Assembly (NCBI GenBank): GCA_017305135.1
Contig: JAFKNA010000007.1
Location: 55,441-119,440, forward strand
DNA length: 64,000 bases
Source of the DNA: Lysobacterales bacterium
GTDB lineage: Bacteria > Pseudomonadota > Gammaproteobacteria > Xanthomonadales > Rhodanobacteraceae
Direction: 5' to 3'
In this document: in pieces, positions 15,421 to 39,095 of the stretch
How positions within the stretch are numbered: the stretch's first letter is position 1
Layout: each line of letters opens with the position of its first letter
Made by a program: the position numbers and the translations under genes
The notes under the pieces: model-generated
The model's database searches: none
What the model was told of the DNA's origin: nothing
Seen by the model: the letters and a program-made list of their open reading frames with translations, nothing else

Positions 15421-15497
15421 GGCTATGTAGCTCAGACGGTTAGAGCGCGAGACTCATAATCCCGAGGTCGGTGGTTCGATCCCACCCATAGCCACCA
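15421..15497 (+). tRNA. tRNA-Met (anticodon CAT), elongator type
   Basis: 77-nt cloverleaf folded by hand: GGCTATG / GCTC..GAGC / CGAGA CTCATAA TCCCG / GGTGG TTCGATC CCACC / CATAGCC A CCA. The G1-C72 pair and similarity to E. coli elongator Met argue against initiator. There is one A-C mismatch in the anticodon stem. Confidence 0.93.
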
Positions 15498-16385: not shown

Positions 16386-16637
16386 ATGGAAACTTACATC
16401 ACCACCGATGAACTAGCTACCCGGATCCACTATGACGTCCGGACCATCCGGACACGTCTGAAGGACGCGGTGCTGCTGGAAGGCGTGCACTACATTCGAC
16501 CGTTCGGGGGTCGAAAGCTTCTCTTCGTCTGGGAGGCGATCCAGCGCGACATCGGCAAGTTCTCGGCCGGTCGTGCTCCGGTTGTGCATCGGGACATCGG
16601 CATTCCCATGGCCAATGGCGCGGTGAGCCATGGCTAA
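16386..16637 (+). CDS. excisionase / AlpA-like DNA-binding protein
   Basis: 83 aa. YITTDELATRIHYDVRTIRTRLKDAVLLEGVHYIRP is a MerR/Xis-type HTH. Overlaps the int start by 8 nt. Confidence 0.6.
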   Translation: METYITTDELATRIHYDVRTIRTRLKDAVLLEGVHYIRPFGGRKLLFVWEAIQRDIGKFSAGRAPVVHRDIGIPMANGAVSHG

Positions 16638-17997
16638 GGTTCGTGCCCGTCCTGAGACGGGGATGCTCTACCTGGACTTCTTCTACAGAGGCGTCCGTTG
16701 CCGAGAGCAGACGGCCCTGCTTGACACCGCGGAGAACCGTCGCCGGGTACAGGCCTTGATGAACCGGGTCTCGAAGGAGATCAAGCAGGGCTTGTTCGAT
16801 TATGCGGCGACGTTCCCGGGGAGTCCAAGGGCAGCCCAGTTCGGCGGGCCAGGTGTAGGCGCCGAGGGGATCCTTCCGGCCGGCCCTCCTCAAGCCGCAG
16901 GTCCAATCGCTTCCGATACGCCCACCTTCGCCGACTTTTCCGTGACGTGGCGGAAGGAGATGGCGCCCCAGTGGCGGCGCCAGCACCGGGACAGCGTGGA
17001 TGCGACGTTCGACGCGCACCTGCTCACGGAGTTCGGTGACCGGCCGGTCGGCTCCATCGCCAAGGCCGATGTGATGGCGTTCAGAGCAAAGCTGGCGGAA
17101 CTGCCCGGCCGTTCCAGCCCGAAGCTGTCCCCGACCACGATCAACAAGACGATGGGCCTCCTGCGCCAGTGCCTGACCGAGGCCAGCGAGCGCTTCGGGA
17201 CGCCGGATGCCTTCAAGGGCGTGAGGCGGCTCAAGGGACGACGTCCCGACGTCAAACCGTTCTCGCTGGAAGAGGTCGAGAAGATCCGGGCCACCATCCG
17301 TCCGGACTACCGGAACTACGTCACCTGCCGCTTCTTCACCGGCATGCGCACCGGCGAGATCAATGGGCTGAAGTGGAAGTACGTCGACTTCGACCATGAA
17401 GTCATACGGGTTCGGGAGACGTTCTCGGCCGGCGAGGCGGAAGAGAACGCCAAGACCGAGAGCTCGATCCGCGACATCCCGATGCTCCCGATGGTGAGGG
17501 AGGCCCTGGAGCAGCAATGGAACGCGCGGGGCCCGAGCGACGAGTACGTGTTTCAGACCCGCGCAGGCCATCCGATTGACGCCCACAACTTCGCCAACCG
17601 CATCTGGTACCCCCTGCTGCGCTACCTCGAGCTTGAGAAGCGCAGGCCCTACCAGACCCGGCACACCGCCGCGACGCTGATGCTGGCCTCGGGCGAGAAC
17701 CCGGAGTGGATCGCCCGGCTCATGGGGCACACCAACACCCAGATGCTCTTCACCGTCTACTCGCGCTTCGTGCCGAACCTGACCCGACAGGACGGCCTCG
17801 CCTTCGCAGGGCTGCTGAGCCGGCAAGACAGCAAGCCGCAGCCGGATTCGAGCCCGCCCGAGGTCAACGACCTGGAATCGATGGGCGCTGAGGAACTCCG
17901 GAACGCCCTGAGGGCGATGCTGGCCGGCGAGCGCCGCGGCGGTCCGCGGTCCCGTAAGAAGGCGAGGGCAGCACCACCGCTCTCGCCCACAACCTGA
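16630..17997 (+). CDS. int: tyrosine site-specific integrase (Arm-type N-terminal domain)
   Basis: MAKVRARPETGMLYLDFFYRGVRCRE at the N-terminus. Catalytic region RFFTGMRTGE...HTAATLMLASGENPEWIARLMGHTNTQMLFTVYSRF. Confidence 0.93.
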   Translation: MAKVRARPETGMLYLDFFYRGVRCREQTALLDTAENRRRVQALMNRVSKEIKQGLFDYAATFPGSPRAAQFGGPGVGAEGILPAGPPQAAGPIASDTPTFADFSVTWRKEMAPQWRRQHRDSVDATFDAHLLTEFGDRPVGSIAKADVMAFRAKLAELPGRSSPKLSPTTINKTMGLLRQCLTEASERFGTPDAFKGVRRLKGRRPDVKPFSLEEVEKIRATIRPDYRNYVTCRFFTGMRTGEINGLKWKYVDFDHEVIRVRETFSAGEAEENAKTESSIRDIPMLPMVREALEQQWNARGPSDEYVFQTRAGHPIDAHNFANRIWYPLLRYLELEKRRPYQTRHTAATLMLASGENPEWIARLMGHTNTQMLFTVYSRFVPNLTRQDGLAFAGLLSRQDSKPQPDSSPPEVNDLESMGAEELRNALRAMLAGERRGGPRSRKKARAAPPLSPTT

Positions 17998-18006
17998 GGA
18001 AAAGCC

Positions 18007-18405
18007 ATGCAGCTCATCTCAACAGGAAGCTTCCTCGGCTACACGCTGGAGGCCTACCTGCCGGACAACGGTTCGCTCGACCGCCTGACGTTGTGGGTGG
18101 TCAGCGCGGGTCGAGTGGTCGCCGAGTACGAGTGCCAGCGACCGCACGCATGCAGCGCCGACAGCCTCGCATGGGTCCTACCCACGCTCCGGAAGATGGC
18201 CCGGCAAGCCGCGAAACACCTGGCCAGTGTCCCGGATATGGGACAGGTCGCGCCGCGGCAGCCGGCGGTGAGAAGGCGTTCACCACACTGCCGACAAGAG
18301 CGGCCGGGAACTCGGCGGATGACCGCCCCAGGCCGGGCCGGCCAATCAAGCGCGCACACCCGGGTGCCCGCGACCACGTCCATTACAAAAGGAAGCCCAC
18401 GATGA
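18007..18405 (+). CDS. hypothetical protein
   Basis: The only support is the position and an ATGA stop/start overlap with the next gene. The C-terminal half is basic and low-complexity. Confidence 0.35.
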   Translation: MQLISTGSFLGYTLEAYLPDNGSLDRLTLWVVSAGRVVAEYECQRPHACSADSLAWVLPTLRKMARQAAKHLASVPDMGQVAPRQPAVRRRSPHCRQERPGTRRMTAPGRAGQSSAHTRVPATTSITKGSPR

Positions 18406-19286
18406 CTGCATCAACGGATTGTCCCGTCCATGTCACGACCGGCGTCATCGATCGCTGGGGATACACGCTCGACGACGGCCTCGCGCCCATCCGGTTCAAG
18501 TTGTATGTACACGACGGTGCCTACGCGATCGCCACCTGGTGCCCGCCGTTCGTGCTCGCCGACGATCTCCACGTCGATCCCGTGCGGGTGACGCTGGTGC
18601 CTTGCCGCATCGATGCCGACACGTTGTGGGTCGCCACGGCGGTAGAGTTCGAGCCGGAAGCTCCCGTCCTCGATCTCATCCCGGAGGACTTCGGGGCGGA
18701 CGAAGAGATCGTTTCAAGGCTGCGGCACGTCGTGGACCGCATCGGGAATGATGCGCTGGTTCGGCTGATCAACGACATCTGGAAGTTGCGCCGCGTGTTC
18801 CACAACTTCTGGACCTGTCCCGCCTCGCAAGCCCACCATCACGCATACCGTGGCGGGCTTGCCGCCCATACGCTGGAGATGGCCGAGCGGGTTGCGGACA
18901 CGCCGTCGCTGTCAGGCAGCGACCGCGACATCGGCATCGCGTACGCACTGCTGCACGACCTAGGCAAGCTCTGGTGCTACGGCGACGGCGGCTTTGAGCC
19001 GGAGGCCCAACTTGGCCACGAGCTCGTCACGCTGACGCGGCTGAACTCGGAGTTCGATGGCCTCCAGCGTGACTGGCCGGAGGGCGCGGTCGCGCTGCGC
19101 TCGCTCATCTCCGGGCTCTGGAAGACAAAGGGGCGGAAGCCGATCCTGGCGGTCGGGAAGCTGGTGCAGGCGTACGACCAGATGAGCGTGGAGGAAGACC
19201 TGCGCGGTCGCGCCGCACGCCGCCACCAGCCGCGCGCGGTGATGGGCTATGCGGACAACGTGCGCCCGTTCCCGATCAGGCTTTGA
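18402..19286 (+). CDS. HD-domain protein (resembles N-terminal TraI_2/MobH-relaxase-type HD module)
   Basis: ATG 18402 is preceded by AAAAGGAAG. Motifs SQAHHHAYRGGLAAHTLEMAERV and IAYALLHDLGKLW (HD). Confidence 0.7.
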   Translation: MTASTDCPVHVTTGVIDRWGYTLDDGLAPIRFKLYVHDGAYAIATWCPPFVLADDLHVDPVRVTLVPCRIDADTLWVATAVEFEPEAPVLDLIPEDFGADEEIVSRLRHVVDRIGNDALVRLINDIWKLRRVFHNFWTCPASQAHHHAYRGGLAAHTLEMAERVADTPSLSGSDRDIGIAYALLHDLGKLWCYGDGGFEPEAQLGHELVTLTRLNSEFDGLQRDWPEGAVALRSLISGLWKTKGRKPILAVGKLVQAYDQMSVEEDLRGRAARRHQPRAVMGYADNVRPFPIRL

Positions 19287-19507
19287 CCTGGTTCGCCGGA
19301 AACCCGGTGCAGAAGCGCGCTGTTCCAGATCCAAGCGAACGACTAAGGTCTCGCCGTGCGAACATCGTGCCTGGGGCTCTTCCGGGCGGGAAGCGAATGC
19401 CGTAGCTATTCCGCCTCGCGGAGCACGCTGCCCACCTGTGAACTCACCGCCGGCCCGGCTCCGCCCCGCCAGTGGACGGCAAGCTGCAACTGAACTGGAT
19501 ACCACCG

Positions 19508-21998
<2,491 letters not shown>

Positions 21999-22006
<8 letters not shown>

Positions 22007-23348
22007 AACGACGCCCCCGTCTTTCTCGCAATATCAGCTGGCAGAACTCGCAGCGCCAGGCTCAGACACATTTGTGGATGGTCCCTTCGGTTCGAGCCTT
22101 AAATCACACGAGTACGTCGATGCCGGTGTGCGCCTAATTCAGCTGCAAAACATCGGCGAAGGCGTGTGGCGCGATGAGAACAAGAAATTTATCACTGCTC
22201 GAAAGCTCAAGACTCTCGAACGTCATCGGGCGATCCCAGGCGACATTGCGATCGCGAAGATGGCCGACCCAGTGGCGAGGGCGTGCCTTGTTCCGCCAGT
22301 GGCAGAACAGTTTGTCGTGGTAGCCGATTGCATCCGGCTTCGGTTGGACGAGGCTCGATTTGACCCCGGCTTTGTGGTTCGAGCAATCAACAGCCCGTAC
22401 ACTCGCCGCGAGGCCGAGAAGAAGGCCATCGGTTCGACACGAGTCCGAATCAACCTCAGCGTGTTGAAAACAGTTGCTTGCCTCGCTCCTGGACTGCCAG
22501 AGCAACAAGCAATCTCGCGCATCCTCGACACCCTCGACACCGCCATTCACGAAACCGAGGTGATCATCGCCAAGCTCAAGGCCGTCAAGCAGGGCCTGCT
22601 GCACGACCTGCTGACGCGCGGCATCGACGCCAACGGCGAACTGCGTTCGCCTCAAGCCGAGGCGCCGCATCTCTACAAGGAGTCGCCGCTGGGGCGGATT
22701 CCGAAGGAATGGGACGCCACCCCACTCAGGAACCTGCTCTCCGACACATACCGCTACCCCAGCTATTACGGCATAAATTATGTCGAGGACGGCGTATCTG
22801 AAATAAGAGGCGAACTCGTGCGATCGGATGGCACCTTGTCTGACTCTACGGTCGAATATCGTCACATCAGCGAGAAAACTGCCTCGCGCTTTCCGCGAGT
22901 TCGGCTTTGTTCTGACGACGTTGTCATGACTGTGCGCGGGACAATTGGAAAGTTCGCACTGGTCCCTGGCTGGCTGGAAGGGTCTGTGATAACTGCCAAC
23001 CTGCTCAAACTTTCACCAAACCGGACTGCTGTCGAGCCAGCTTGGCTGATGCATATGCTCTTGTCTTCGGCATTTCAGGAGCGATTGGATGCGGCTTGCT
23101 CGGCAACGACCATCAAGACCATCCAGGTTCCCGCCCTGCTCGACATCCGCACTGCCACTCCTCTGAGATCCGAGCAGAAGGAGATAGGTGCCAGACTCTC
23201 AGCGATAGACAGACGCATATCACTGGAGTTGGTGGAGCTGGAAAAGCTAAAGATCAATAAATCCGGCCTCATGCACGACCTCCTCACCGGCCGCGTCCGC
23301 GTCACGCCGCTGCTTGCCGAGGCGGAGCAACACGAACGGAGTACCTGA
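21999..23348 (+). CDS. hsdS: type I R-M specificity subunit
   Basis: Overlaps the hsdM stop. Two target-recognition halves are separated by conserved helices [20 protein letters not shown] and [20 protein letters not shown]. Confidence 0.9.
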
Positions 23349-23417
23349 AGGCCGCGGGCCGGAAATGACGCGAACGGGCTTCCCCATCGAATCCATGCGA
23401 TAAAGTCGCTTCCTTGC

Positions 23418-24542
23418 ATGACGCATCAGGGGGCGCTCATGGAATCGACTGCTTCGGCGCGTGCCGTTTCGACATCGGCCGCGCAGCCTGTCATTGGCCC
23501 GCGCGATCTGGTGGCGGGCCTCGGCAGCGCGCCCCGCGATCTGCTGGCGGCCTGCCTGGCGCTGTTCGAGGACAGCACCCTCCGGAGGCGGCTGACCCAT
23601 CTGCTGGAAAGCTGGACGCCCACGGTAATGCCTCGGGACGATGGCGCCGCTGACGTGGGCCACGCCGCCGACTCGCTGCGCAGCACGATCGACGCGATCC
23701 GCGACAGCCAAGTTTCCGACGATGCCTTGCGGGTGCGCTTGTGGATCTACCTGCGCTCGGCGTTTGGCCTGCCGCCACGCACCTTCGGCACGCTGCGCTC
23801 GGCCGCCACCTCGGCCGATGACCTGGTCGCCACCGCCGTGCATGGTTTGCAGCCGGGCTTTGCCGAAAGGCAATGGGAATGGCTCAAACGCAGCACCGGC
23901 ATGGGGACGCCGATCGAGGTTCCCGACAGCTTCGATGGGCTGGCGCGGAAGACGCTGGAGGAGCTGGCGGCGCAGGTGATGGCCGGAACGGATGCCGCGT
24001 CGAAGGAGGCGCGCGATCAGGTCCTCGCCGAACTGCGCGAGCGTGTGAAAGGACTGAACGCCGACGATCAACAAGTCCTGATGGACGCCATCGGCGTCGA
24101 CCAGCTCAACGACGAGGCGCTGCTCAAGATCCTGATGACCGGCGGCGGTCTCGCCGCCTTGAATGTCGGCGTCGGCATGGCCGGATTCGCGGCCTACATC
24201 CTGGCAGCCAAGGTCTCCGCGTTCATCCCGCTGGTCAGCGGCCCGGCGCTGGTTTCCCTGCTGGCGGTGCTCTCCAATCCGATCACGCTGGTGCTGGCGA
24301 CGCTCGGCATGGGTTGGCTCGCCACGTCGTCGGCCGAGACACAGATCCAGCGCGCGGTGGCGCTGCGCGTGATGTCGCTGCTGGCGCTGCACGGCCTGTC
24401 ATCCGGCGGGGATGGCCTGCGCAGCGCAGCGCGGGCCTTCCATGCGCTGCCGGAAATGCGCCCGATGGGCCGGCTGGATGATGCGCGCTTGCGGCCCTAC
24501 CAGCACGACTGGGCGGTCATTGCACCGGCTCACCGCCAGTAG
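23418..24542 (+). CDS. unknown membrane protein A embedded in the hsd operon
   Basis: 374 aa (alternative start ATG 23439 behind CAGGGGG). Soluble N-terminal half, then Gly/Ala-rich TM hairpins GGGLAALNVGVGMAGFAAYILAAKVSAFIPLVSGPALVSLLAVLSNPITLVLATLGMGWLA. No family recognised. Confidence 0.7.
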   Translation: MTHQGALMESTASARAVSTSAAQPVIGPRDLVAGLGSAPRDLLAACLALFEDSTLRRRLTHLLESWTPTVMPRDDGAADVGHAADSLRSTIDAIRDSQVSDDALRVRLWIYLRSAFGLPPRTFGTLRSAATSADDLVATAVHGLQPGFAERQWEWLKRSTGMGTPIEVPDSFDGLARKTLEELAAQVMAGTDAASKEARDQVLAELRERVKGLNADDQQVLMDAIGVDQLNDEALLKILMTGGGLAALNVGVGMAGFAAYILAAKVSAFIPLVSGPALVSLLAVLSNPITLVLATLGMGWLATSSAETQIQRAVALRVMSLLALHGLSSGGDGLRSAARAFHALPEMRPMGRLDDARLRPYQHDWAVIAPAHRQ

Positions 24543-24548
24543 GAGCCT

Positions 24549-25928
24549 TTGGATGACGAAGTCGCGCAGCTGACGGACCGCTGTCCGCACGGCGAGCACG
24601 GCCAGAGCCGCTGGGGGCGCCTGCTCGAAGCCGACCCGGACGCGGCCGCCGACACCGCGATTCTCGCCTCGCTCACGCTGGGCGAGCTGGTCTACAACAT
24701 CCATCGGCTCGATCCGAACGTGCTGCAGGCGGCCGATTTCTCGCGTGTGGAGGATCTGGCTGATCCGATCGAGTTTGCCGGCTTCGCGCATCGCATCGCC
24801 GAGATGGGTGCGGCCAGCCAGCTTGGCGCATTCAGCAATCTGAGGGGCTACGTCGCCGAACAACTGGTCGCCGCGCAGTTGATCGAGCAAGGTCACCTCG
24901 TCGAGTTCCCCGTCACCTCGAACCAGGCCGGCTGGGATCTGAGCGTCGATGGCGTGAAGTTCCAGGTGAAGAACGCTTCGGACCTGTCGCTGCTGCATCG
25001 ACATTTCGACATGGGGTACGACTACCCGGTCATCGCCAACTCCGAAGTGGCGGACATGCTGGCGCGCCATGCGCCCGACTCGTTGCCGGACTGGGCCGAC
25101 CAGGTCCACTTCGTCGAGGGGTACAGCCGTTCGGCCGTCGAGCATGTGACGCACCAGACGCTGGATGCCGGCGACGACCTGCTGCATCCGGACGTGCCGG
25201 TGTTCACCGTCATGCTGGTTGGACTGCGACACCTGCTGCGCTTCAACAGCGGCGAACTGTCTGCGACTCAGGCGGTGCAGGAGGTCCTGGTCGATGGCAG
25301 CGTGCGCGCCGGCCTGGCGGCCGTGGGCAATTACGCGGGGGTGACCATCGGCTTGTTGGTATTCGGCCCCGCTGGCGCCCTGATACTGGGCTCGGCGCTC
25401 CCCGTGCTGAGCCGCTGGCACGCCACCTCGGTCAGGAAGGGACTCGACGCGTTGGTGCGGAGCGACAGCTACATGGCATGGGACCGCGACTGCCGCGAGG
25501 CTCAGCGGGCGCTGATCGCCGTGCTGGAGCGCAAGCTGCAGGACAAGGCCGAGCGGATGAAGCAACGCGTGCCCGATTCATCCGACGGCGTGGTCGGGCG
25601 TTATCTGCGCTGGCGTTTCGATGATGAACTCAGGTTTCTTCGGGAAGCCTGGTGTCGCTTGAAGGTGATCGGCGCCGATGCGTCGGTTCCGATGGAGGAA
25701 GCAGGTCCGCAACTCCTGACCTGGCTAAGCACCAGCACGCTGCATCCGGTGGTGTACCAGGTGCCGCTTCGGCAGTGGTCGGCGATCATGTCGAAGCGAC
25801 CTGCGCTGGGTGAGCGGGTCGTAGAAACTGCGGCGGATGTGGGTAAGAAGGCCGTCGATACCGGCAAGGAAATGTTCGGCAGCGTCATGGGCTGGCTCAG
25901 CGAGCGCCAAGGCAGGAGAGAAGAGTGA
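24549..25928 (+). CDS. unknown membrane protein B with Mrr/PD-(D/E)xK-like N-terminal motif
   Basis: TTG start 6 nt after the stop of A, with AGGAG overlapping that stop. YVAEQLVAAQLIEQGHLVEFPVTSNQAGWDLSVDGVKFQVK shows an E...D...QxK pattern. Also a glycine-zipper TM AGLAAVGNYAGVTIGLLVFGPAGALILGSALPVL and a helical C-terminal region. Confidence 0.7.
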   Translation: MDDEVAQLTDRCPHGEHGQSRWGRLLEADPDAAADTAILASLTLGELVYNIHRLDPNVLQAADFSRVEDLADPIEFAGFAHRIAEMGAASQLGAFSNLRGYVAEQLVAAQLIEQGHLVEFPVTSNQAGWDLSVDGVKFQVKNASDLSLLHRHFDMGYDYPVIANSEVADMLARHAPDSLPDWADQVHFVEGYSRSAVEHVTHQTLDAGDDLLHPDVPVFTVMLVGLRHLLRFNSGELSATQAVQEVLVDGSVRAGLAAVGNYAGVTIGLLVFGPAGALILGSALPVLSRWHATSVRKGLDALVRSDSYMAWDRDCREAQRALIAVLERKLQDKAERMKQRVPDSSDGVVGRYLRWRFDDELRFLREAWCRLKVIGADASVPMEEAGPQLLTWLSTSTLHPVVYQVPLRQWSAIMSKRPALGERVVETAADVGKKAVDTGKEMFGSVMGWLSERQGRREE

Positions 25929-26000
25929 AGTGAGGCCGACTGGCGGCGAAGCGGTACGCGGGTAGCATGTGCTATGCGTGACAAGCAACAGGGGGCGGCA

Positions 26001-29000
26001 ATGGGCTGGGAAAACGAGGATGTCGAAAGACCATTCATTGCTCAGCTGCAGGCGCTGGGCTGGTCGCACATCGAGGGCAGCCTCGATGACCCGGGCGTTT
26101 CCGGCCGCGCGAGCTTTGCCGAGGTCATCCAGGAGCACGTGCTGCGCGAGCACCTGCGTGCCCTGAATCCCGGTCCGGATGGAACTCCCTGGCTGGATGA
26201 TGCGCGCTTGTCCGAAGCGGTGGCGGCCATCACCCGGCTCGGCACGCACAAGCTATTGGAGGCCAACCAGAAGGCCACCGAGCTGTTGATCAAGGGTCTG
26301 ACCGTCGAGGGTCTGCCGGGCTGGGACGGCGGACGCGGCCAGACGATCCGCTTCATCGACTGGGATACGCCGGCCAACAACCGCTTCACGGTGGTCAACC
26401 AGTACCGCGTCTATTGTCCGCCCGGCTTCAACTGCGCCAAGGCCTTCATCGTGCCGGATCTGGTGCTGCTGGTGAACGGCATCCCGGTGGTGGTGGTGGA
26501 GTGCAAGAGCCCGTTGATCCCCGAGCCGCTGACTGAGGCGGTCGACCAGTTGCGCCGCTACAGCAACCAGCGCAAGGCGGCCTTCGAGGTGGACGAGAAC
26601 GAGGGCAACGAGGCGCTGTTCGCCACCAACCAGTTGTTGATTGCCAGCAGCTTCGATGAGGCGCGCGTCGGCAGCGTCGGCGCGGCCTTCGAGCATTTCG
26701 CGCAGTGGAAGACGGTAGTCGGCCCTGATGGTCACGGGTCCGAGATCGACGTTGCGCGGGCCTTGGGCAAGCCGGCCCTGTCGGAACAGGAGCGCCTGAT
26801 TGCCGGCCTGTTGAAGCCCGATCACCTGCTCGACGTGGTGCGGCACTTCCTGCTGTTCCTGCAGCCGGGCGGCCAGGCCATCAAGTCGGTCTGCCGCTAC
26901 CAGCAGTACCGGGCGGTGAATCGCGCCATCGCACGGCTGAAGACCGGGCAGACGCGCCTGCAACACGGCGAGCACGACCAGCGCGGCGGCATCATCTGGC
27001 ACACCCAGGGCTCGGGCAAGTCGCTGACCATGGTGTTCCTGGTGCGCAAGATGCGCGCGGATGCGCAGCTGCGGCGCTTCAAGGTTATCGTCGTCACCGA
27101 CCGCAAGGACCTGCAGCGCCAGCTTTCCGACACCGCCACGCTCACTGGCGAGGTGGTCGAGGTCGCGAACAGCTCTGCGGGCGTGAAGGCGCTGGCACGC
27201 CGCAAGGGGCCGGGGCTGATCTTCGCCACCATCCAGAAGTATCGCGACACCGATACGGCGGGTGAGGCGCCGCTGACGGCCGAAGACCTGCCCAAAGTGA
27301 ATGAACCGGAGGCCGCGTACGCGGCGCGCGAGTCGTTCGAGGTGCTCAACGAGGACGACGGCATCCTCGTGCTGGTGGACGAGGCGCATCGCACGCAGGC
27401 CGGCGATCTGCACGCAAGCTTGCTGGCGGCGCTGCCGAATTGCGCGCGCATCGGCTTCAGCGGCACGCCGATCATCATGGGCGAGAAGAAGCGCACGCAC
27501 GAGATCTTCGGCGAATTCATCGATCGCTACACGATCAAGCAAGCCGAGGCCGACGGCGCCACGGTGCCGGTGCTCTACGAAGGGCGCACCGCCACCGGCG
27601 CGATCAAGGATGGTGCCAGCCTCGACGAGCTGTTCGAGGACCTGTTCCGCCAGCACACGCCCGAGGAGCTGGAGGCGATCAAGCAGAAGTACGCCACCAA
27701 GGGGCACATCTTCGATGCCCCGGCGCTGATTGCCGACAAGGCGCGCGACATGCTGCGCCACTACGTCACCAACATCCTGCCCAACGGCTACAAGGCGCAG
27801 GTCGTGGCCTACAGCCGGCTGGCCGCGATCCGCTACTTCGAGGCGTTGCGCAAGGCGCGAGACGAACTGCTGGCCGAGGCCGAGGCGCTCGCTGCCGACG
27901 ACAAGGCGCTGGACGACGAGGCGCTGTGCCAGCGCCCACCCCGCGTGCAGGCAACGGTGCAAGCCTGGCGCTATCGCGACATCCTGGCCCGCCTCGAGTT
28001 CGCGCCGATCATCTCCGGCAGCAACAACGACGATCCGGCGTGGAGCCCGTGGACCGATGGCACGGCGCAGGAACGGCTGATCAAGCGCTTCAAGAAGCCG
28101 CTGTTCCACGCCGACCCCACCAAGACCGACCCGCTGGCCTTCCTGGTCGTGAAGTCTATGCTGCTGACCGGCTTCGATGCCCCGATCGAGGGTGTGATGT
28201 ACCTGGACCGGCCGATCCGCGAAGCGGAGCTGCTGCAGGCGATCGCGCGCGTCAACCGCACCGGCTTCGGCAAACGCTGCGGCATCGTGGTGGACTACTA
28301 CGGCGTGGCGCGGCATCTGAAGGAAGCGCTGGCCGCCTACGCAGACGAGGATGTGCAAGGCGCGCTGGCCAGCCTCAAGGACGAGGTGCCGGTGCTGCGC
28401 GACCGCCATCTGCGCGTGGTCGACCTGTTCCGCAGGCAGGGCATCGAATCGCTGGACGACGAGGAGGCGTGCGTCGCGGCCTTGGCCAGCGAGAAGCTGC
28501 GTGCCGAGTTCGCGGTCAAGCTCAAGGCGTTCCTGGCCTCGCTGGACACGGTGCTGCCGCGCCCGGAAGGACTGCCTTTCTCCGCCGATGCCAAGCGGCT
28601 GGCCTACATCTATGCGCGGGCCCGCAACCGGTACAAGGACACGCCCGTCCTCGGCAAGGACGTCGGCGCCAAGGTGCGCAAGCTGATCGACGACCACGTG
28701 ATCTCGCTGGGCGTCGATCCGAAGATTCCGCCGATCCAGCTCACCGATGCCGAGTTCGACATGCATCTGGCCCGCTCGGCGAGCGACCGCGCCAAGGCGT
28801 CGGAGATGGAACACGCGATCCGCTCGCACATCCGCAAGCACGTGGACGAGGACCCGGTGCTGTACCGCAAGCTGTCCGAACGCCTGAACGACATCCTGAA
28901 GACGCTGGGCGAGCAGTGGAACGAGGTGATTGCGCAGTTGCAGAAGATCATCGACGAATTGCGTACGGGCAAGGCCGCCACCGCCGATGCGCCCGTCGAC

Positions 29001-29321
29001 CTGCCCGAGCACTGCGCCCCGTTCCTGCGCACCGTTCTCGACGTCGTCCGCGCCGACCAGGACGCCACGCCGGCAGAATTGATGCGTCTGAAGGATGTGA
29101 CCGTCGAGCTGGTTGAACTGCTGTCGCAGGAATTGAAAGCCAACCCGAGGATCTGGACCCCGAACAAGATCCCCGACCAGGAAAACCTGCGCGACGGCGT
29201 GCTGTTCGAGCACCTGATGCGCCTGCGCCCGGCGCTGGTGGATGCGGACAAGGCGGGTGTGCTGGCCGACAGGCTGATGGAACAGGCGCGCGCCAACCAC
29301 GATCGGCTGGTGCAGGTGTGA
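26001..29321 (+). CDS. hsdR: type I restriction enzyme endonuclease/helicase subunit
   Basis: ATG 26001 behind AGGGGG. Motifs HTQGSGKSLTMVFL (Walker A), LVLVDEAHRTQ (DEAH) and TGFDAP. About 1106 aa. Confidence 0.95.
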   Translation: MGWENEDVERPFIAQLQALGWSHIEGSLDDPGVSGRASFAEVIQEHVLREHLRALNPGPDGTPWLDDARLSEAVAAITRLGTHKLLEANQKATELLIKGLTVEGLPGWDGGRGQTIRFIDWDTPANNRFTVVNQYRVYCPPGFNCAKAFIVPDLVLLVNGIPVVVVECKSPLIPEPLTEAVDQLRRYSNQRKAAFEVDENEGNEALFATNQLLIASSFDEARVGSVGAAFEHFAQWKTVVGPDGHGSEIDVARALGKPALSEQERLIAGLLKPDHLLDVVRHFLLFLQPGGQAIKSVCRYQQYRAVNRAIARLKTGQTRLQHGEHDQRGGIIWHTQGSGKSLTMVFLVRKMRADAQLRRFKVIVVTDRKDLQRQLSDTATLTGEVVEVANSSAGVKALARRKGPGLIFATIQKYRDTDTAGEAPLTAEDLPKVNEPEAAYAARESFEVLNEDDGILVLVDEAHRTQAGDLHASLLAALPNCARIGFSGTPIIMGEKKRTHEIFGEFIDRYTIKQAEADGATVPVLYEGRTATGAIKDGASLDELFEDLFRQHTPEELEAIKQKYATKGHIFDAPALIADKARDMLRHYVTNILPNGYKAQVVAYSRLAAIRYFEALRKARDELLAEAEALAADDKALDDEALCQRPPRVQATVQAWRYRDILARLEFAPIISGSNNDDPAWSPWTDGTAQERLIKRFKKPLFHADPTKTDPLAFLVVKSMLLTGFDAPIEGVMYLDRPIREAELLQAIARVNRTGFGKRCGIVVDYYGVARHLKEALAAYADEDVQGALASLKDEVPVLRDRHLRVVDLFRRQGIESLDDEEACVAALASEKLRAEFAVKLKAFLASLDTVLPRPEGLPFSADAKRLAYIYARARNRYKDTPVLGKDVGAKVRKLIDDHVISLGVDPKIPPIQLTDAEFDMHLARSASDRAKASEMEHAIRSHIRKHVDEDPVLYRKLSERLNDILKTLGEQWNEVIAQLQKIIDELRTGKAATADAPVDLPEHCAPFLRTVLDVVRADQDATPAELMRLKDVTVELVELLSQELKANPRIWTPNKIPDQENLRDGVLFEHLMRLRPALVDADKAGVLADRLMEQARANHDRLVQV

Positions 29322-29325
29322 CGCG

Positions 29326-30078
29326 ATGCTGGCACCCGTGAAATCGACCGCCACCCTGGCGGACCTAGCCGCCTCGACGCCGGGGCGCGGCCTGACCGTG
29401 GACGACCTGCACTTCGCGGTACGTCACAGCTCGCGCCGCAAGACGATGCAGATCACGGTGGAGCGCAACGGCGAGCTGGTGCTGAGCGCGCCTCCCGGCG
29501 TGAGCACAACCCGCCTGCGCGAGTTCGTGCTGGCCAAGCGCTTCTGGATCTACACCAAGCTGGCCGAAAGGGACCGCCTGCAGCGGCACGCGCCGCGCAA
29601 GCAGTTCGTCGGCGGCGAGGGTTTCCTGTACCTGGGCCGCAGCTACCGGCTGAAGCTGGTCGACGACCAGGATGTCCCGCTGAAACTCGCGAGCGGCCGC
29701 TTCTGCCTTCGCCGCGAAGCCCTGCCCGCCGCGCGCGATCACTTCATCCGTTGGTACGCCGAACGCGCCCGCGCCTGGCTCTCCAGCCGTGTCGCCGACT
29801 ATGAGACTCGGATGGAGGTAAATCCGGCCGGCGTGAAGGTGCAGGATCTGGGCTACCGCTGGGGATCATGCGGCAAGGGCGATTGGCTGTACTTCCATTG
29901 GAAGGCGATCCTGCTGCCGGCTCGCATTGCCGAGTACGTAGTCGTGCACGAGATCGCACATCTGCACGAGCCGCACCACACACCGGCGTTCTGGCTGCGG
30001 GTAGAGCGTGCGATGCCGGATTACGCGCAACGAAAGGACTGGTTGGCTGAGCATGGAATCGATGTCGAGGGGATCTGA
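29326..30078 (+). CDS. DUF45/YgjP-like (M48-type) metallohydrolase
   Basis: WGSCGKGDWLYFHWKAILLPARIAEYVVVHEIAHLHEPHH (HExxH). A common companion of hsdR. Confidence 0.85.
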   Translation: MLAPVKSTATLADLAASTPGRGLTVDDLHFAVRHSSRRKTMQITVERNGELVLSAPPGVSTTRLREFVLAKRFWIYTKLAERDRLQRHAPRKQFVGGEGFLYLGRSYRLKLVDDQDVPLKLASGRFCLRREALPAARDHFIRWYAERARAWLSSRVADYETRMEVNPAGVKVQDLGYRWGSCGKGDWLYFHWKAILLPARIAEYVVVHEIAHLHEPHHTPAFWLRVERAMPDYAQRKDWLAEHGIDVEGI

Positions 30079-30083
30079 GAACA

Positions 30084-32528
30084 ATGGCGAACTACATCAC
30101 CGGTGACCATTTCAAGCTGCTGAACAAGTGGAAGGGGCAGAAGCGCGACGAGTCGAATCCCGAGCAGAACCGCGCCTACGACGAACTGAAGCAGGCCTAC
30201 GAGCTGGTTGCCGCATGGGCCGACAAGCTGAGGGCACGCTGCTTCCCCGACGGTCGTGTCGAAGTCCGCAGGAGGCCGACCAATCAGGCCAACAACTTCG
30301 CCGGTTACCTGTGGGCCAGGATCTATCCGTCACCTGATGCACCCAAGGAGCTTGCGTACACCGTCGATATCGCAGCGGGCACCGGCTTCACTGTGAAGAT
30401 CGACACCGCGGGTCTGGATGACACCGGGGCAACCCGACAGGCTTACCTCTCACTCCGCGACGCGCCCGGAACCCCGGGTTTTGTTGCGAACCTGACCGCC
30501 GAAGCTGGGCTGGGAATGAGCCTCGATGAGTTGGCCGAATGGAGCGCGAACGCGATCGGTGACTTTGTGCCGTCTTACGAGCAGCTCTGTGACGAACTCG
30601 ACCTCACGCCCCAGGCGACCGGCTTCGTGCACCAGGAACCCATGGAATTTCTCAATGGCGCGCATGGCGTGACGCTCCCGACACCACCGCCGAAACGGAA
30701 AGGACATTGCATGGATGTCTGGGTGGTGTCCCAGTCGCGCCAGCGGGAAGCCGGGAAGACGCCCTCTCGCGAGGAGGTCGCCGGCGATCCCCGATTGGCC
30801 CGATCCAACACGAACAACGTTGAACAGGAGTTCAATCGCTGGCGCAGGTGGTGGAACGAGGGGCGGTCGCCAGCTGCGGATGCCGACCATCACCCGGGTG
30901 GTGTCGCCCAGGCACGGGTACCTGGAAGGCGCGCGGCCTGGCCGATGCCAGTGAACCGCATCCTCTACGGCCCGCCTGGCACGGGCAAGACCCACCGCAC
31001 CATCGACGAGGCGGTGAAGCTGCTGGATCCGGACTTCGAAGCTGCCGCCGGCGAGGATCCCCGCGCGAGCCTCAAGGCACGTTTTGATGAACTCGTCCGC
31101 GAGAAGCGCATCCGCTTCGTCACCTTCCACCAGAGCTTCAGCTACGAGGACTTCGTCGAAGGGATTCGCGCCAAGCCGGCTGATGGTGGACCAAAGTTCG
31201 ACATCGAGCACGGAATCTTCCGCCAGATCTGCAGGGCTGCCGCAGGCTCGGCCAAGGTGGCCGAGGAGGTTGGTGTGCGCGACGGCGCGCGTATCTGGAA
31301 GCTGTCGATCGATGGCACCGACTCTAGCCAGACGCGCGACTACTGCCTGGCACACGGCGAGGCCCGCATAGGCTGGGCACATGTTGGCGATCTCCGCGAT
31401 GCGCACTTGACCGAAAACCCCGACTTCATCGCTCTGGGTAGCAATGATCGAAACACCCTGCTGACGTTCGCGTGCGAAACCGAACCTGGTGACGTGGTCC
31501 TGTGCATCGGTTCCGACACCACGGTACAAGCGATCGGCGTGATCCAGGGCGAGTATGACCATCAGCCGGAAACGCCCCTCGGCGTTCGGTCCGACTACGC
31601 GAACATCCTGCCGATCAATTGGTTGGCGACCGGACTCTCGCTGGACATCCGCCCAATCAACGATGGACGGCGGTTCACGCAGAAGACGATCTATGAAATC
31701 GACCGCTTCGGTTGGCCAAAGCTGTCGGATTTCCTCGATGCCAACGCGGTCGTTCTCGAAAGCAGCACGAAAGGAGAGCACCTGCGGGAGCTGCCGCACG
31801 TCCTCATCATCGACGAGATCAATCGCGGCAACATCTCGCGCATTTTCGGCGAGCTCATCACCCTGATCGAGCCGTCCAAGCGCAAGGGCATGCCGGAGGC
31901 GCTAGAAGTGGTGCTTCCTTATTCGAAAGATCCATTCAGCGTACCTGCCAACCTGCACCTGATCGGCACCATGAATACCGCCGACCGCTCGCTGGCGGGA
32001 CTGGATCTGGCGCTGCGCCGGCGCTTCGAGTTCGTCGAGATGCTGCCCGAGCCCGAGCTGCTGTCCAAAGTCGTCGTTGCGGGCATTCCCATCAAGGCCT
32101 TGCTCGAAAAGATCAACAGCCGCATCGAAGCCCTGCTTGGCCGCGACTACACGATCGGGCACGCCTACTTCATGGGACTCAACTCGGAATCTCCCATCGG
32201 GGAGCTCGCAGATGTATTCCAACGCAAGGTGATGCCGCTGCTGCAGGAGTACTTCTTCGAGGACTGGGAGAAGATCGCGTGGGTCTTGAACGACCACCGG
32301 AAAGAGGACGCGTCCCTGCAGTTCGTGCGCAAAAATGGCCGCAACCAGGACCTGTTCGGCCCCGACGTGGACCTGCCGCGCGCCCCGCAGGACTGGTACG
32401 TCGATCCGAAAGTCTTCACGAACGCGGCGGCCTACCGAGCAATCATTGACGCGCCAGCAGCGGGTGCGCCCGTTCCAGGCGCACCAACATCCGGCGCGGC
32501 GACAGCGGTAGCGCTGGTCACCGAATGA
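30084..32528 (+). CDS. mcrB: McrB-like GTPase (AAA+), long N-terminal sensor region
   Basis: NRILYGPPGTGKTH, FVTFHQSFSYEDFVEGIR, LIIDEINRGNISRIFGELITLIE, TMNTADRSLAGLDLALRRRFEF. The N-terminal roughly 290 aa resemble a DUF3578-type DNA reader, and there is a central insertion. Confidence 0.9.
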   Translation: MANYITGDHFKLLNKWKGQKRDESNPEQNRAYDELKQAYELVAAWADKLRARCFPDGRVEVRRRPTNQANNFAGYLWARIYPSPDAPKELAYTVDIAAGTGFTVKIDTAGLDDTGATRQAYLSLRDAPGTPGFVANLTAEAGLGMSLDELAEWSANAIGDFVPSYEQLCDELDLTPQATGFVHQEPMEFLNGAHGVTLPTPPPKRKGHCMDVWVVSQSRQREAGKTPSREEVAGDPRLARSNTNNVEQEFNRWRRWWNEGRSPAADADHHPGGVAQARVPGRRAAWPMPVNRILYGPPGTGKTHRTIDEAVKLLDPDFEAAAGEDPRASLKARFDELVREKRIRFVTFHQSFSYEDFVEGIRAKPADGGPKFDIEHGIFRQICRAAAGSAKVAEEVGVRDGARIWKLSIDGTDSSQTRDYCLAHGEARIGWAHVGDLRDAHLTENPDFIALGSNDRNTLLTFACETEPGDVVLCIGSDTTVQAIGVIQGEYDHQPETPLGVRSDYANILPINWLATGLSLDIRPINDGRRFTQKTIYEIDRFGWPKLSDFLDANAVVLESSTKGEHLRELPHVLIIDEINRGNISRIFGELITLIEPSKRKGMPEALEVVLPYSKDPFSVPANLHLIGTMNTADRSLAGLDLALRRRFEFVEMLPEPELLSKVVVAGIPIKALLEKINSRIEALLGRDYTIGHAYFMGLNSESPIGELADVFQRKVMPLLQEYFFEDWEKIAWVLNDHRKEDASLQFVRKNGRNQDLFGPDVDLPRAPQDWYVDPKVFTNAAAYRAIIDAPAAGAPVPGAPTSGAATAVALVTE

Positions 32529-33829
32529 ACCTGATCAGCGTCCGCGAGCACGCCCGGATTGCCGCAGGGCCGCTGGCGGCGGAAAGCCTCGATTCGGCGA
32601 CGATCCCACATTCCGCGTTCGACTGGCTATGCCGCGAGTCGGCACGCCTGCGGAAGAACGGCGCGGTGTTGGTGCAGCTCGAGGAGCGGCACGCGCTGCG
32701 CCTCGACAACTATGTGGGCGTGCTGGAAACCCCGTGCGGCACCCGCATCGAGATCCTGCCCAAGCATGTGGATGGCGTGGCAGGCACCGCCGCCGCACGC
32801 AAGGCATTGGTCAACATGCTGCGCCATGGGCTGCACCTTCCGACTCGCGACACCGGGCCAACGGCGCTGCACACCTTTGACAGGCCGGTTAGCGAATGGA
32901 TCCTCGGCGAGTTCCTTTCCGAGCTGGATGCGCTGGTCCGGCGCGGTCCCAGGTTCGACTACAAGACTGTCGAGGAAGAAGCCCGTTTCCTTCGCGGCCG
33001 TCTGCGCGTGGCCGCCCAGATCCGCCAGCCAACCGGGCGCCAGCACCTGTTCCAGGTGGAGCACCAGATCTTCGATGCCGATTGCGCGGAGAACCGGCTG
33101 CTCGTTTCCGCTCTCGCCAAGGCGGCGGCCCTGACTCGCGACCCCGGCAACTGGCGCCGCGCGCACGAGCTGCAGCACCAGCTTGCCGATATCCAGCGCA
33201 GCCATGACATCGGCGACGACTTCCGGCGCTGGCGCGACGACCGACTGATGGCGCGCTACCGCGCGCTGCGGCCTTGGTGCGAGCTGATCCTGAAGGACCG
33301 CGATCCGAGTTCCGTGCTCGGCGACTGGACCGGGCGCAGCCTGCTGTTCCCGATGGAAAGGGTGTTCGAGACGTATGTCGGTGTTTGTCTTCAACGCACG
33401 CTTGCTGCCGGTATCCGGCCCGGCAAGCCTCGCTCGGAATATCTCTGCCGCCAGGGCGAGCGCCGCGCGTTCCAGTTGAAGCCGGACTTCCTGATCAGGC
33501 ATGGAGATTCGGCCTGGGTGGTGGACGCCAAGTGGAAGCGCCTCGACAGCGCTGCGCAGGACACCAACTACGGGCTTGGCCAAGGCGATGTCTACCAGCT
33601 TCATGCCTACGCCCACCACTATGCGAAGGGCTGCGGACAACTCATCCTGGTGTTCCCGCGGACCGGCTCGTTCAGCGCGCCGCTGGAACCCTTCGTCTTC
33701 CAGGGAGGCCACCAGTTGCACGTCATCCCGCTCGATGTGACCAGCGGTACATTCGTCACGGACGTGTCTGGGCACTTCCCCTGGGCTCCGCAATCGCGCG
33801 CGCACCACGGAAGCTCACTGGTAGGATGA
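32525..33829 (+). CDS. mcrC: McrC-like nuclease subunit
   Basis: ATGA overlap with mcrB. PD-(D/E)xK core LKPDFLIRHGDSAWVVDAKWKRL. Confidence 0.85.
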   Translation: MNLISVREHARIAAGPLAAESLDSATIPHSAFDWLCRESARLRKNGAVLVQLEERHALRLDNYVGVLETPCGTRIEILPKHVDGVAGTAAARKALVNMLRHGLHLPTRDTGPTALHTFDRPVSEWILGEFLSELDALVRRGPRFDYKTVEEEARFLRGRLRVAAQIRQPTGRQHLFQVEHQIFDADCAENRLLVSALAKAAALTRDPGNWRRAHELQHQLADIQRSHDIGDDFRRWRDDRLMARYRALRPWCELILKDRDPSSVLGDWTGRSLLFPMERVFETYVGVCLQRTLAAGIRPGKPRSEYLCRQGERRAFQLKPDFLIRHGDSAWVVDAKWKRLDSAAQDTNYGLGQGDVYQLHAYAHHYAKGCGQLILVFPRTGSFSAPLEPFVFQGGHQLHVIPLDVTSGTFVTDVSGHFPWAPQSRAHHGSSLVG

Positions 33830-36233: not shown

Positions 36234-37096
36234 TGGGAACCTCGACATCAAGCTCGGGTGGCAAGGCCGGCTCCCCCTTCGATCCTGAGTGGCTAACACC
36301 CGAGGGATCCGCTGCGGGCACAGCCGGTGGCGATGACGCTGCTGGCGACGGAGACCAAGATGGGAGTGACGACTCCGCCGCGTCGGGCGGCGTCGACACA
36401 CAGGCCGGTCCTGGCGAGGAAGGTGCAGCAGAAGCGGCCTTCGCACCCAGTCGCAGATTCGCCGACGCGCGAACCAAGATGTCTGCCTACTTGGGCGGCG
36501 GCGGACGTGAGTTATTAAGGTCGGCCACAAAGAGCATGGTTACCAGGGGCATGGGTGGGGCGCGCCGCGCCGCTTCGACCATGCGAGGCACGGCCCAAGG
36601 CACCGGAGCCCTCGGTGAGTTCTTGGCGTCCGCCCGCGACAGGTCCAACCCTCGTGTCGTCGACTGGGTCAATCGAACTCGGCAGGCGAACCTGGCCGCC
36701 GACGACCTCATTTTGGAGCTGGTCAAGGAGGTCATGCCGGGAACCGGCAGCGTCGACGACGAATCGCTGCGCAATGCCGCAGCAGAAGCACTTGGGCAAC
36801 TCTATGAGTTGAACCCCAATGTCGACATCTTCGACCTCACCGACGCGCAGATTCACGAAGTCATGGCCATCACGATTGCCAACGACGTCTGCAATCGCAT
36901 GGACCTTCAGCTCGGGCAGGCATACGAGAAGCTGAAGTACAACGCGCTACAGATTCAGCTGTATCGGAAAGACGTGAAGGAATACGTGCAGTCGGCGGTT
37001 CGCGTCGTCATGGAGCGACTCGGCGCGGCGGGACTCGACCCCAAGCGTCTCGCTCGTGAAGTGCTCCAGTCTGCAATGGAGGTGTTCGCATCATGA
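36233..37096 (+). CDS. qatB: QatB (unknown function)
   Basis: GTG 36233 overlaps the qatA TAG (TAGTG). Disordered acidic/Gly N-terminus, then a helical domain. Assigned by position in the Qat operon. Confidence 0.75.
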   Translation: MGTSTSSSGGKAGSPFDPEWLTPEGSAAGTAGGDDAAGDGDQDGSDDSAASGGVDTQAGPGEEGAAEAAFAPSRRFADARTKMSAYLGGGGRELLRSATKSMVTRGMGGARRAASTMRGTAQGTGALGEFLASARDRSNPRVVDWVNRTRQANLAADDLILELVKEVMPGTGSVDDESLRNAAAEALGQLYELNPNVDIFDLTDAQIHEVMAITIANDVCNRMDLQLGQAYEKLKYNALQIQLYRKDVKEYVQSAVRVVMERLGAAGLDPKRLAREVLQSAMEVFAS

Positions 37097-38358: not shown

Positions 38359-39095
38359 TGGACTTTCACTGCCACCTTGACCTCTACCCCGGGGCAAGGG
38401 AGGTCTATCGTGAAGCGGCTCAGCGCAACGAGTTCACATGGTTGGTGACCACGAGCCCGAGGGCGTTCGCAGCCACATCGCGAGCGTTGGAGGCCTATCC
38501 CGCAGTGCTCATCACGCCTGGTCTGCATCCAGAGATTGCGCACGAGCGAGCATCAGAACTGGACCTGCTGCTAGAGCAGATTGCTGGGGCGAAGGGCGTC
38601 GGTGAGGTAGGCCTTGATGGGTCGCCACGGTTCAAGCCTCATTACGACGTCCAGCGTCGCATCTTTAGGGCGGTTATCGCGCGCTGCGCTGAGTTGGGTG
38701 GCCGCACGCTCAGCATTCACTCCCGGCGCGCAGTGAGAGATGTACTGGCCGACCTGGAGCGATATCCGAACTTCGGGACCGCTGTCTTGCACTGGTTCTC
38801 GGGATCCTCGGCTGAGCTCAAGGCAGCAGCAGCCCGTGGATGCTGGTTCAGCGTCGGGCCAGCGATGTGCGCTTCTGCGAGCGGGCGTGCGTTGGCGGCA
38901 GCCATGCCCCGCGACCGAGTCGTGCCGGAGAGCGATGGCCCCTTTGCCAAGATTGAAGGCAAGCTGGTAATGCCTTGGAGCGCGAGGCAGACAGCCGAAG
39001 CGCTGAGCCCTCTGTGGGGGCTATCTCGCAACGCGACCATCGACACCATCACACGAAACGGACGCAAGTTGGTGCGCCTTATTGAGAAGACGTAG
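38355..39095 (+). CDS. qatD: TatD-family metallo-hydrolase, QatD
   Basis: ATGA overlap with qatC. Motifs MMDFHCHLD, GEVGLDG, SIHSR, HWFSG. Confidence 0.9.
   Translation: MMDFHCHLDLYPGAREVYREAAQRNEFTWLVTTSPRAFAATSRALEAYPAVLITPGLHPEIAHERASELDLLLEQIAGAKGVGEVGLDGSPRFKPHYDVQRRIFRAVIARCAELGGRTLSIHSRRAVRDVLADLERYPNFGTAVLHWFSGSSAELKAAAARGCWFSVGPAMCASASGRALAAAMPRDRVVPESDGPFAKIEGKLVMPWSARQTAEALSPLWGLSRNATIDTITRNGRKLVRLIEKT

Follow-up and report, generated by a model that had tools for sequence, protein, structure and literature searches.

A candidate membrane-anchored nuclease-type defence gene, interrupted by one nonsense codon, nested in a type I restriction-modification operon

In type I restriction-modification (R-M) operons, prrC sits between hsdS and hsdR. 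The PDC systems of PADLOC are candidates proposed because they lie embedded in BREX, DISARM or type I R-M systems (guilt-by-embedding), with a pipeline that left out pseudogenes (Payne et al. 2024). Among membrane-held nucleases, Shield ShdA is a membrane-bound RmuC-domain nuclease, found in defence islands and sufficient alone for defence (PMC10270631), and SNIPE, composed of a single transmembrane (TM) segment, DUF4041 and a GIY-YIG nuclease, cuts phage DNA during injection and becomes toxic when its TM segment is lacking (10.1101/2025.11.03.685801). C19orf12 is a transmembrane glycine-zipper protein (PMC4470416). Here, we have analysed a stretch of 64,000 nucleotides from a Lysobacterales bacterium (contig JAFKNA010000007.1, positions 55,441 to 119,440; hereafter the window), and in it two open reading frames (ORFs), A and B, that lie between hsdS and hsdR. 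The initial annotation had regarded them as a candidate for a novel two-gene defence module, possibly held in check by the type I enzyme. Comparison with their relatives indicates that A and B are almost certainly one gene, interrupted by a C to T nonsense change (CAG to TAG), of an unnamed family of membrane nuclease-like proteins of about 800 amino acids (aa).

ORFs A and B share a common reading frame and are parted by a single TAG codon (24540-24542) and two sense codons. The features described at the junction, i.e. the coordinates of both ORFs, the 6 nt from the stop of A to the TTG of B and an AGGAG overlapping the TAG, are all present. Homologue searches with B returned mostly proteins of 747-804 aa, two of which also match A; the homologues are single proteins of about 750-860 aa that align unbroken over the stop of the window, and in the alignment of 32 full-length homologues this position falls within a poorly conserved linker. 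In 80 related genomic loci drawn from the GTDB species set (numbered L), family ORFs were found in 76, with a median length of 811 aa and mostly as one continuous ORF, and in nearly all of the loci A and B correspond to the N- and C-terminal halves of a single protein. The closest relative, L007, from a Dokdonella metagenome-assembled genome (MAG), exhibits 94.3% nucleotide identity over the gene, with 836 codons and no indels. It carries CAG (Gln) at the position of the TAG and CTA (Leu) at that of the TTG, and its AGGAG is part of Gln-Glu codons. Considering these codons and the continuous ORFs of the family, the pair is therefore read as one gene with a recent nonsense mutation; the proposed two-gene module and its coupled TTG/AGGAG start, which is not conserved, are both abandoned.

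The changes at conserved columns that separate the window from L007, polarised on the family consensus, comprise two derived in the window and three derived in L007. The ratio of synonymous to nonsynonymous codons is 37:39 for A and 24:27 for B, the halves being alike. Because the derived changes are few and the codon counts similar in both halves, the nonsense change is recent, and no further decay beyond the TAG was detectable in conserved columns, indels or codon counts against L007. An ancient pseudogene was ruled out, the lineage of the window having neither an excess of conserved-column changes nor indels. In the window the gene has most likely just become a pseudogene; at best, it has just been split. 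TAG is an ordinary stop codon in the window. The true start of the gene is likely ATG 23439, at which the 367-aa call of A begins in the NCBI record (protein P0061) and in Logan.

Broken copies are also present in approximately seven other loci, at unrelated positions, and about 9% of the family copies are disrupted. The copy of L019 has a frameshift in the linker; in the nuclease region, the reading frame is shifted in L022 and L034 and ended by an in-frame stop in L073. These are cases of sporadic inactivation or MAG error and not of a conserved split, and a conserved natural A/B split was ruled out by the different sites at which the other split copies are broken. L017 and L019, which come from one MAG (Proteobacteria bacterium OH_HBrB_243), are paralogues, one intact (792 aa) and the other with the linker frameshift.

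The E...D...QxK pattern noticed earlier in B consists of E104, D130, Q139 and K141, which are near-invariant, being found in 167, 166, 168 and 167, respectively, of 169 family representatives. In 33 B-module proteins with a mean identity of 25%, the invariant residues are F64, G100, E104, G115, D130, Q139, K141, H152, P160, N164, G268 and A275. An AlphaFold2 (AF2) model of aa 40-270 of the window B, with a predicted local distance difference test (pLDDT) score of 82 overall and above 90 in the core, presents the order α-β-β-β-α-β. The E lies on α1, the D at β2 and the QxK motif on β3, an arrangement of PD-(D/E)xK topology. The top Foldseek match against the PDB was I-Ssp6803I (2ost), with a probability of 0.99, a root mean square deviation of 2.2 Å over 52 residues and 29% identity, at an E value of 0.2. 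The further PDB matches, none of them significant, were the R2 RLE domain, a splicing endonuclease, DdmD, ThaI, Ecl18kI, EcoRII and Vsr, and those against BFVD (best E 0.01, not significant) included VRR-NUC proteins, resolvases and restriction enzymes. PDDEXK_5 (PF11645) is the sole nuclease family of Pfam that recurs: it matches 9 of the 33 relatives at E ≤ 0.1 (best 1.2e-3) and the window B below threshold (E 0.086, 13.3 bits versus a cut-off of 26.1). The resemblance to Mrr/PD-(D/E)xK nucleases suggested before holds for the motif and the predicted topology; Mrr_cat matches one of the 33 relatives. Profile searches with the B module and with the full-length alignment against PDB sequences gave nothing significant, with Gly-rich tape-measure or cargo proteins and coiled coils as noise. 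Whole-chain Foldseek of the full-length model against the PDB was uninformative, returning long helical transporters only (TM ≤ 0.1, E ≥ 9e-3).

The hydropathy profile confirmed the Gly/Ala-rich hydrophobic segments, at aa 244-306 of A and aa 262-288 of B. The latter, which corresponds to aa 639-665 of the readthrough product, reaches a Kyte-Doolittle maximum of 2.04 and would form a hairpin of about 27 uncharged residues round an FGPAG turn, with a small-xxx-small (Gly) repeat round this central turn. None of the 169 representatives lacks G268 or A275, and G260, G268, G273, P274, A275 and G276 are found in 164-169 of them. The C19orf12 family (PF20721) matches 12 of the 33 B-module relatives, one of them, P0052, above the gathering score (30.6 bits versus 30), while the window B has no match to it at E ≤ 0.1. 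Other zipper or bacteriocin-type Pfam matches in relatives are DUF1269, Gly-zipper_Omp, Bacteriocin_IIc and XhlA. The glycine-zipper segment and the helical C-terminal tail, both described in the initial annotation, were also recovered, by hydropathy and in the AF2 model of the relative P0019. Taken together, sequence conservation and the model indicate that the protein is likely a membrane-associated PD-(D/E)xK-like enzyme. The tetrad and the zipper are both near-invariant, which argues for an enzyme needing its membrane association.

The soluble region of the N-terminal module contains the conserved motifs AGLG..R..L..LALFED and LRLxLW, and the N-terminal helices of P0019 exhibit a pLDDT of about 90 in the AF2 model. 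The first membrane region (GFxAYILAAxxSAFIPLVSGPALVS...) consists of nearly invariant columns in the full-length alignment. No relative of this module was detectable in Pfam, NCBIfam or PDB sequence searches. An origin of the two membrane hairpins by internal duplication was rejected (hhalign probability 0.3%).

An exhaustive profile search yielded 1,286 representatives (clusters at 50% identity) at E ≤ 1e-3, 390 of which at E ≤ 1e-30, spread over Proteobacteria and several other phyla. As had been stated earlier, neither A nor B can be assigned to a named family: Pfam and NCBIfam have no curated entry for them, the family as a whole lacks a model of its own in these two collections and in PADLOC, and literature searches (PDC-M72; C19orf12 and phage; glycine zipper, nuclease and defence) found no description of it. 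The B module also exists as stand-alone proteins of about 410-460 aa, which begin at the corresponding boundary, as well as behind different N-termini of about 500 aa or with C-terminal extensions of about 300 aa. Since it occurs alone or with other partners, the B module represents the core unit, to which A is joined as an accessory. Only two of 72,556 plasmid records carry the family, one being the copy of Paracoccus pPZ03, annotated "hypothetical protein", and no GenBank phage genome and two IMG/VR contigs do so; a phage- or plasmid-borne element was ruled out by these counts.

Several members are of unusual build. P0119 (967 aa) is of full length and carries a DksA/TraR zinc finger at its C-terminus; in P0196, P0200 and P0211 (725-752 aa) the B module is followed by a coiled-coil C-terminus of about 300 aa, ending in a conserved RN..AH motif, and in P0173, P0182 and P0191 (about 955 aa) it is preceded by unrelated N-termini of about 500 aa. 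Four of the 169 representatives, P0030, P0048, P0175 and P0193, lack one or more of the E/D/K residues. In P0030 (L013, from a Hyphomonas MAG), H, H and RIL replace E, D and QVK, and the full-length ORF and the zipper are kept. Such members may be inactivated or repurposed.

PDC-M72 is a phage-defence candidate of PADLOC. Its B component is homologous to the nuclease-like core of the family, the PADLOC model PDC-M72B matching 32 of the 33 relatives (best E 8e-10) and the window B at E 6e-4 over aa 85-172, and both are found embedded in systems such as type I R-M. PDC-M72 differs in being a two-gene cassette (FAM_01979>>FAM_01904), and of its B profile of about 193 positions the family match covers positions 32-124 only. 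The A half of the window gene has no match to PDC-M72A, and the relation is limited to a domain-level match to the B component. PDC-M72 is itself only a candidate system. As the pipeline of Payne et al. excluded pseudogenes, the allele of the window would have been skipped.

Shield ShdA, like the family, combines a membrane anchor with a nuclease domain of the restriction-endonuclease-like superfamily, and it serves us as a working analogy for the mechanism. The resemblance is functional only: A and B have no RmuC (Pfam) or ShdA-type match, and the family is built otherwise than ShdA, with membrane hairpins in two regions, a zipper of the C19orf12 type and an extensive helical module at the N-terminus. 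SNIPE corresponds to the model proposed below in that a nuclease is confined to the inner membrane, which protects self DNA and allows phage DNA to be cut on entry, but its fold is GIY-YIG, it carries DUF4041 and it is anchored in another way; no DUF4041 or GIY-YIG match was found in A or B. I-Ssp6803I and the PDDEXK_5 proteins, which give the best structural match to the B core at sub-threshold scores, are soluble homing or restriction-type enzymes without membrane segments, unlike the family. The zipper hairpin resembles that of the human MPAN/NBIA4 protein C19orf12 in so far as 12 of the 33 relatives match PF20721; the window B itself does not reach E 0.1 with that profile, and the eukaryotic protein has no nuclease domain. 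PrrC and TgvAB occupy the niche of the window gene, in one operon with hsdS on one side and hsdR on the other. PrrC, an anticodon nuclease with an ATPase, is nearly always embedded with a type I enzyme to which it is functionally coupled, and TgvAB is a two-protein GmrSD-like type IV system; the family shares no domain with either and is usually away from hsd genes.

In the window, a Pfam scan confirmed HsdM, HsdS and HsdR on the flanks and on the same strand as the ORFs. Here, hsdM, hsdS, the gene and hsdR follow one another on a single strand, and neither a promoter- nor a terminator-like signal was found in 23200-26100; this is an embedding in the sense of guilt-by-embedding, which asks for a same-strand gene, neither of mobility nor of housekeeping type, amid the core genes of a type I R-M, BREX or DISARM system. 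Across the family this setting is one of several. Hsd-like genes were found within 10 kb in 10 of the 80 loci, in at least four layouts, and the remaining 70 have no Hsd gene within that distance. L003, L004 and L005 present the hsd layout of the window, L011 and L036 the order hsdR-hsdS-gene-hsdM-GmrSD with overlapping stops, L069 hsdMSR-ygjP-gene and L073 hsdR-gene; these seven loci are the embedded layouts, of the window type or other. Clustering of the 1,234 neighbour ORFs of the 80 loci gave no cluster present in more than six, and an obligate multi-gene system is therefore rejected. The restraint of the protein by the type I enzyme, as first imagined, does not agree with so few and so varied Hsd neighbours or with the lack of a conserved partner. 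Of the earlier idea of a defence module within the R-M operon, the embedding is retained, which makes a defence role plausible; the two genes and the link to the type I enzyme are not.

L007 9849-13465 and window 23298-26903 form a 3.6-kb block that is 94.5% identical, against 71-84% for the flanking shared backbone. The block takes in 50 nt from the end of hsdS, the whole gene and about 900 nt from the beginning of hsdR. L007 has neither hsdM nor hsdS, and its layout is a remnant of that of the window, with the gene intact beside a deleted and truncated hsd operon. The gene can thus remain intact where the type I system no longer works. This suggests a recent horizontal exchange of the 3.6-kb block, or a decay of the hsd operon round a retained gene. 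An incompatibility between the R-M system and the gene, which the window (R-M intact, gene broken) and L007 (the reverse) might evoke, was ruled out, both being intact in L003 and L004.

Other genes adjoining the family gene include TmtA of Tiamat in L024, a DpdF/GajB-like helicase in L062 and, directly upstream in L041, a PDC-S37/Hhe protein related to that encoded at 41401-47085 in the window; transposases and housekeeping genes are found as well. The immediate neighbours were scanned in batch with PADLOC and Pfam, which gives coarse counts rather than a fraction of loci in defence islands set against a background. A DrmD/BrxH-like SNF2 helicase of about 950-990 aa lies directly upstream of the family gene in L020, L030 (6092-9055), L031 and L034 (7050-9968), its stop overlapping or abutting the start of the gene, and in this sub-clade the helicase and the family gene possibly make up a two-gene variant system. 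A protein with NYN (RNase) and OST-HTH/LOTUS domains is encoded 54-140 nt upstream in six loci of distant lineages, L001 (8808-9860), L002, L050, L053, L055 and L056, and has no PADLOC match.

The whole is best explained, with somewhat more confidence than doubt, by a single interrupted gene whose family is a membrane-anchored nuclease-type defence candidate. For the family itself, a role in defence against mobile genetic elements is moderately probable. It would be a stand-alone cargo of defence islands that spreads horizontally and has come to lie, repeatedly and independently, within or next to type I R-M operons. Its product would be a Mg2+-dependent nuclease tethered to the inner membrane, the anchors of which would keep the nuclease from the chromosome while it attacks phage or plasmid DNA entering the cell, on the membrane or close to it, and a regulatory or sensing function would fall to the N-terminal module. 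That the protein would act by direct DNA cleavage at the membrane, rather than by membrane permeabilisation, is proposed tentatively, by analogy with the nucleases described above. Still more speculative, and in our opinion improbable, is a new class of single-protein immune effector, in which an active PD-(D/E)xK nuclease would be built into the membrane via a C19orf12-type zipper hairpin, coupling the recognition or cleavage of entering foreign DNA to zipper oligomerisation or permeabilisation, with the N-terminal module as a swappable sensor; the latter is put forward because the B module is also found by itself or joined to different partners at its N- and C-termini. If true, it would give a first functional context for bacterial relatives of the human neurodegeneration protein C19orf12.

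As a candidate defence cargo of the membrane-localised nuclease type, the family is a new variant of a kind that is itself already known. It could be tested as a possible member of the expanding group of membrane-localised nucleases in which location serves to distinguish self from non-self, and it could help to show what C19orf12-like zippers do. The two "hypothetical proteins" of the deposited record correspond to one interrupted gene, which pipelines that drop pseudogenes or split the halves will miss or mis-cluster. The copy of the window, a non-functional or barely functional allele, is of limited value by itself.

Several points weigh against this explanation. The window copy is interrupted, so that it may do nothing in its host genome; none of the fold matches reaches statistical significance, the best E values being 0.2 in the PDB and 0.01 in BFVD; the Pfam nuclease matches are below threshold; many loci have no recognisable defence neighbours, and the Paracoccus plasmid copy lies among metabolic genes; and the strictly conserved glycine zipper would fit a pore-forming abortive-infection effector as well.

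The last point leads to the main rival, an abortive-infection pore former, in which the PD-(D/E)xK-like domain would sense phage DNA or protein and the zipper hairpins would oligomerise, depolarise the membrane and kill the cell. The invariance of the zipper core, the matches of relatives to several glycine-zipper and bacteriocin-type families and the proportion of disrupted copies, as expected of a costly or toxic gene, are all consistent with it, and two separate membrane regions together with a coiled-coil tail would suit oligomerisation. We nevertheless consider it unlikely, as the catalytic-type tetrad is as strictly kept as the zipper, which argues for chemistry over binding alone, and so short a hairpin could be a simple monotopic anchor.

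It is also rather unlikely, a little more so than pore formation, that the family is a non-immune membrane nuclease-like protein serving a mobile element or the cell, e.g. in DNA uptake or transfer, entry exclusion or envelope stress. The many loci without recognisable defence neighbours, the adjoining transposases and housekeeping genes, and the position of the window gene on an integrase-bounded island with a TraI_2-like gene would accord with such a function. It does not explain why the gene has come to be nested, repeatedly and independently, with type I R-M and other defence genes, inside their operons or next to them, nor the homology of the core to PDC-M72B, itself a guilt-by-embedding candidate; moreover, the family is almost absent from plasmids and phages, and no conjugation genes are conserved alongside it in the 80 loci.

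A third alternative concerns the window copy, which would be a functional split if ribosomes reinitiated at TTG 24549 after the TAG, A then being a membrane or regulatory subunit and B the nuclease-zipper subunit. The stop stands exactly at the module boundary, in the variable linker, where the natural stand-alone B proteins of about 430 aa also begin; the TTG follows 6 nt past it with an AGGAG nearby, and neither half shows further decay. But the spacing from this Shine-Dalgarno-like AGGAG to the TTG is 3 nt only, the codons of L007 make the arrangement one mutation old and its start not conserved, and nearly all other members are fused, with the other splits at unrelated positions. A functional split is thus held to be improbable, and the interrupted gene is retained.

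A sequencing or consensus error at the TAG, the gene being intact in the organism, is very improbable. The window apparently derives from a MAG, according to the name of P0061, and broken family copies amount to about 9% in these MAG-rich data; however, the TAG occurs in both the NCBI record and an independent Logan assembly of SRR13325152, where A (367 aa) and B (459 aa) are called identically, perhaps from the same reads. Finally, a PrrC-like guard, held inactive by the type I R-M complex and released by phage anti-restriction attack, is the least probable explanation, since the hsdS-hsdR position shared with prrC, and the almost exclusive embedding of PrrC in type I R-M reported by Payne et al., are outweighed by the 70 loci without a nearby Hsd gene, the differing layouts of the others, the intact gene of L007 beside its deleted, truncated hsd operon and the lack of any ATPase, anticodon-nuclease or PrrC match in Pfam and PADLOC.

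Table 1. Positions of the interrupted gene, its modules and the neighbouring genes in the window.
Feature	Position	Strand	Remarks
Single interrupted gene, unnamed ~800-aa membrane nuclease-like family	23418..25928	+	836 codons on readthrough; same frame, one internal stop
ORF A	23418..24542	+	374 aa, ATG start
ORF B	24549..25928	+	459 aa, TTG start
In-frame TAG nonsense codon	24540..24542	+	In poorly conserved inter-module linker; CAG in closest relative
N-terminal module (ORF A)	23418..24539	+	All-helical soluble region, then membrane region; alignment of homologues
First hydrophobic membrane region	24147..24335	+	A aa 244-306; hydropathy; 2-3 predicted membrane helices
C-terminal module (ORF B)	24549..25928	+	Helical lead-in, PD-(D/E)xK-like core, glycine-zipper hairpin, helical tail
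PD-(D/E)xK-like core	24801..25073	+	B aa 85-175
Putative catalytic residues	E104 24858-24860; D130 24936-24938; Q139 24963-24965; K141 24969-24971	+	
Glycine-zipper membrane hairpin, C19orf12-like	25314..25418	+	B aa ~256-290; GNYAGVTIGLLVFGPAGALILGSALPVLS; hydropathy
C-terminal helical, coiled-coil-like tail, ~170 aa	25419..25925	+	AF2 helices 669-802 of P0019; alignments
tRNA-Met	15421-15497		Island bound
Tyrosine integrase, Arm-DNA-binding domain	16630-17997		Island bound
TraI_2-like ORF ("putative helicase")	18093-19286	+	Directly upstream of hsdM
hsdM	19472..22006	+	Pfam N6_Mtase/HsdM_N
hsdS	21999..23348	+	Pfam Methylase_S
hsdR	25974..29321	+	Pfam HSDR_N, SWI2_SNF2, ResIII
YgjP-like metallopeptidase	29326..30078	+	Pfam YgjP-like
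McrBC pair	30084-33829	+	Directly after ygjP
KAP-NTPase/QueC-like cluster	34368-39095	+	Four co-directional ORFs
Transposase			After KAP/QueC-like cluster
Hhe-like DUF4011 helicase-nuclease	41401-47085	-	

The gene lies on a defence island whose left boundary is marked by the tRNA-Met and the integrase, synteny with L007 breaking at about 15227. The TraI_2 match of the ORF upstream of hsdM is significant and covers only about 30 residues, in an HD-like region (HHHAYRGGLAAHTLEM). McrB, of 814 aa, is long, with about 550 aa N-terminal to its AAA_5 GTPase domain; the Pfam assignments precomputed by Logan list DUF8426 and McrB_lid. The KAP/QueC-like cluster, two of whose four ORFs were scanned, is composed of a KAP-family P-loop NTPase (34368-36233), an ORF at 36137-37096, a QueC-like gene (37093-38358) and an ORF at 38355-39095, and presumably resembles a Qat-type (QueC-like associated ATPase/TatD) defence system. 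The product of 41401-47085, of 1,893 aa, contains DUF4011, an AAA_11/AAA_12 helicase and an MTES_1575 restriction endonuclease domain (Hhe/PDC-S37-like), and exhibits in addition a weak N-terminal Peptidase_M48 match, an unusual fusion.

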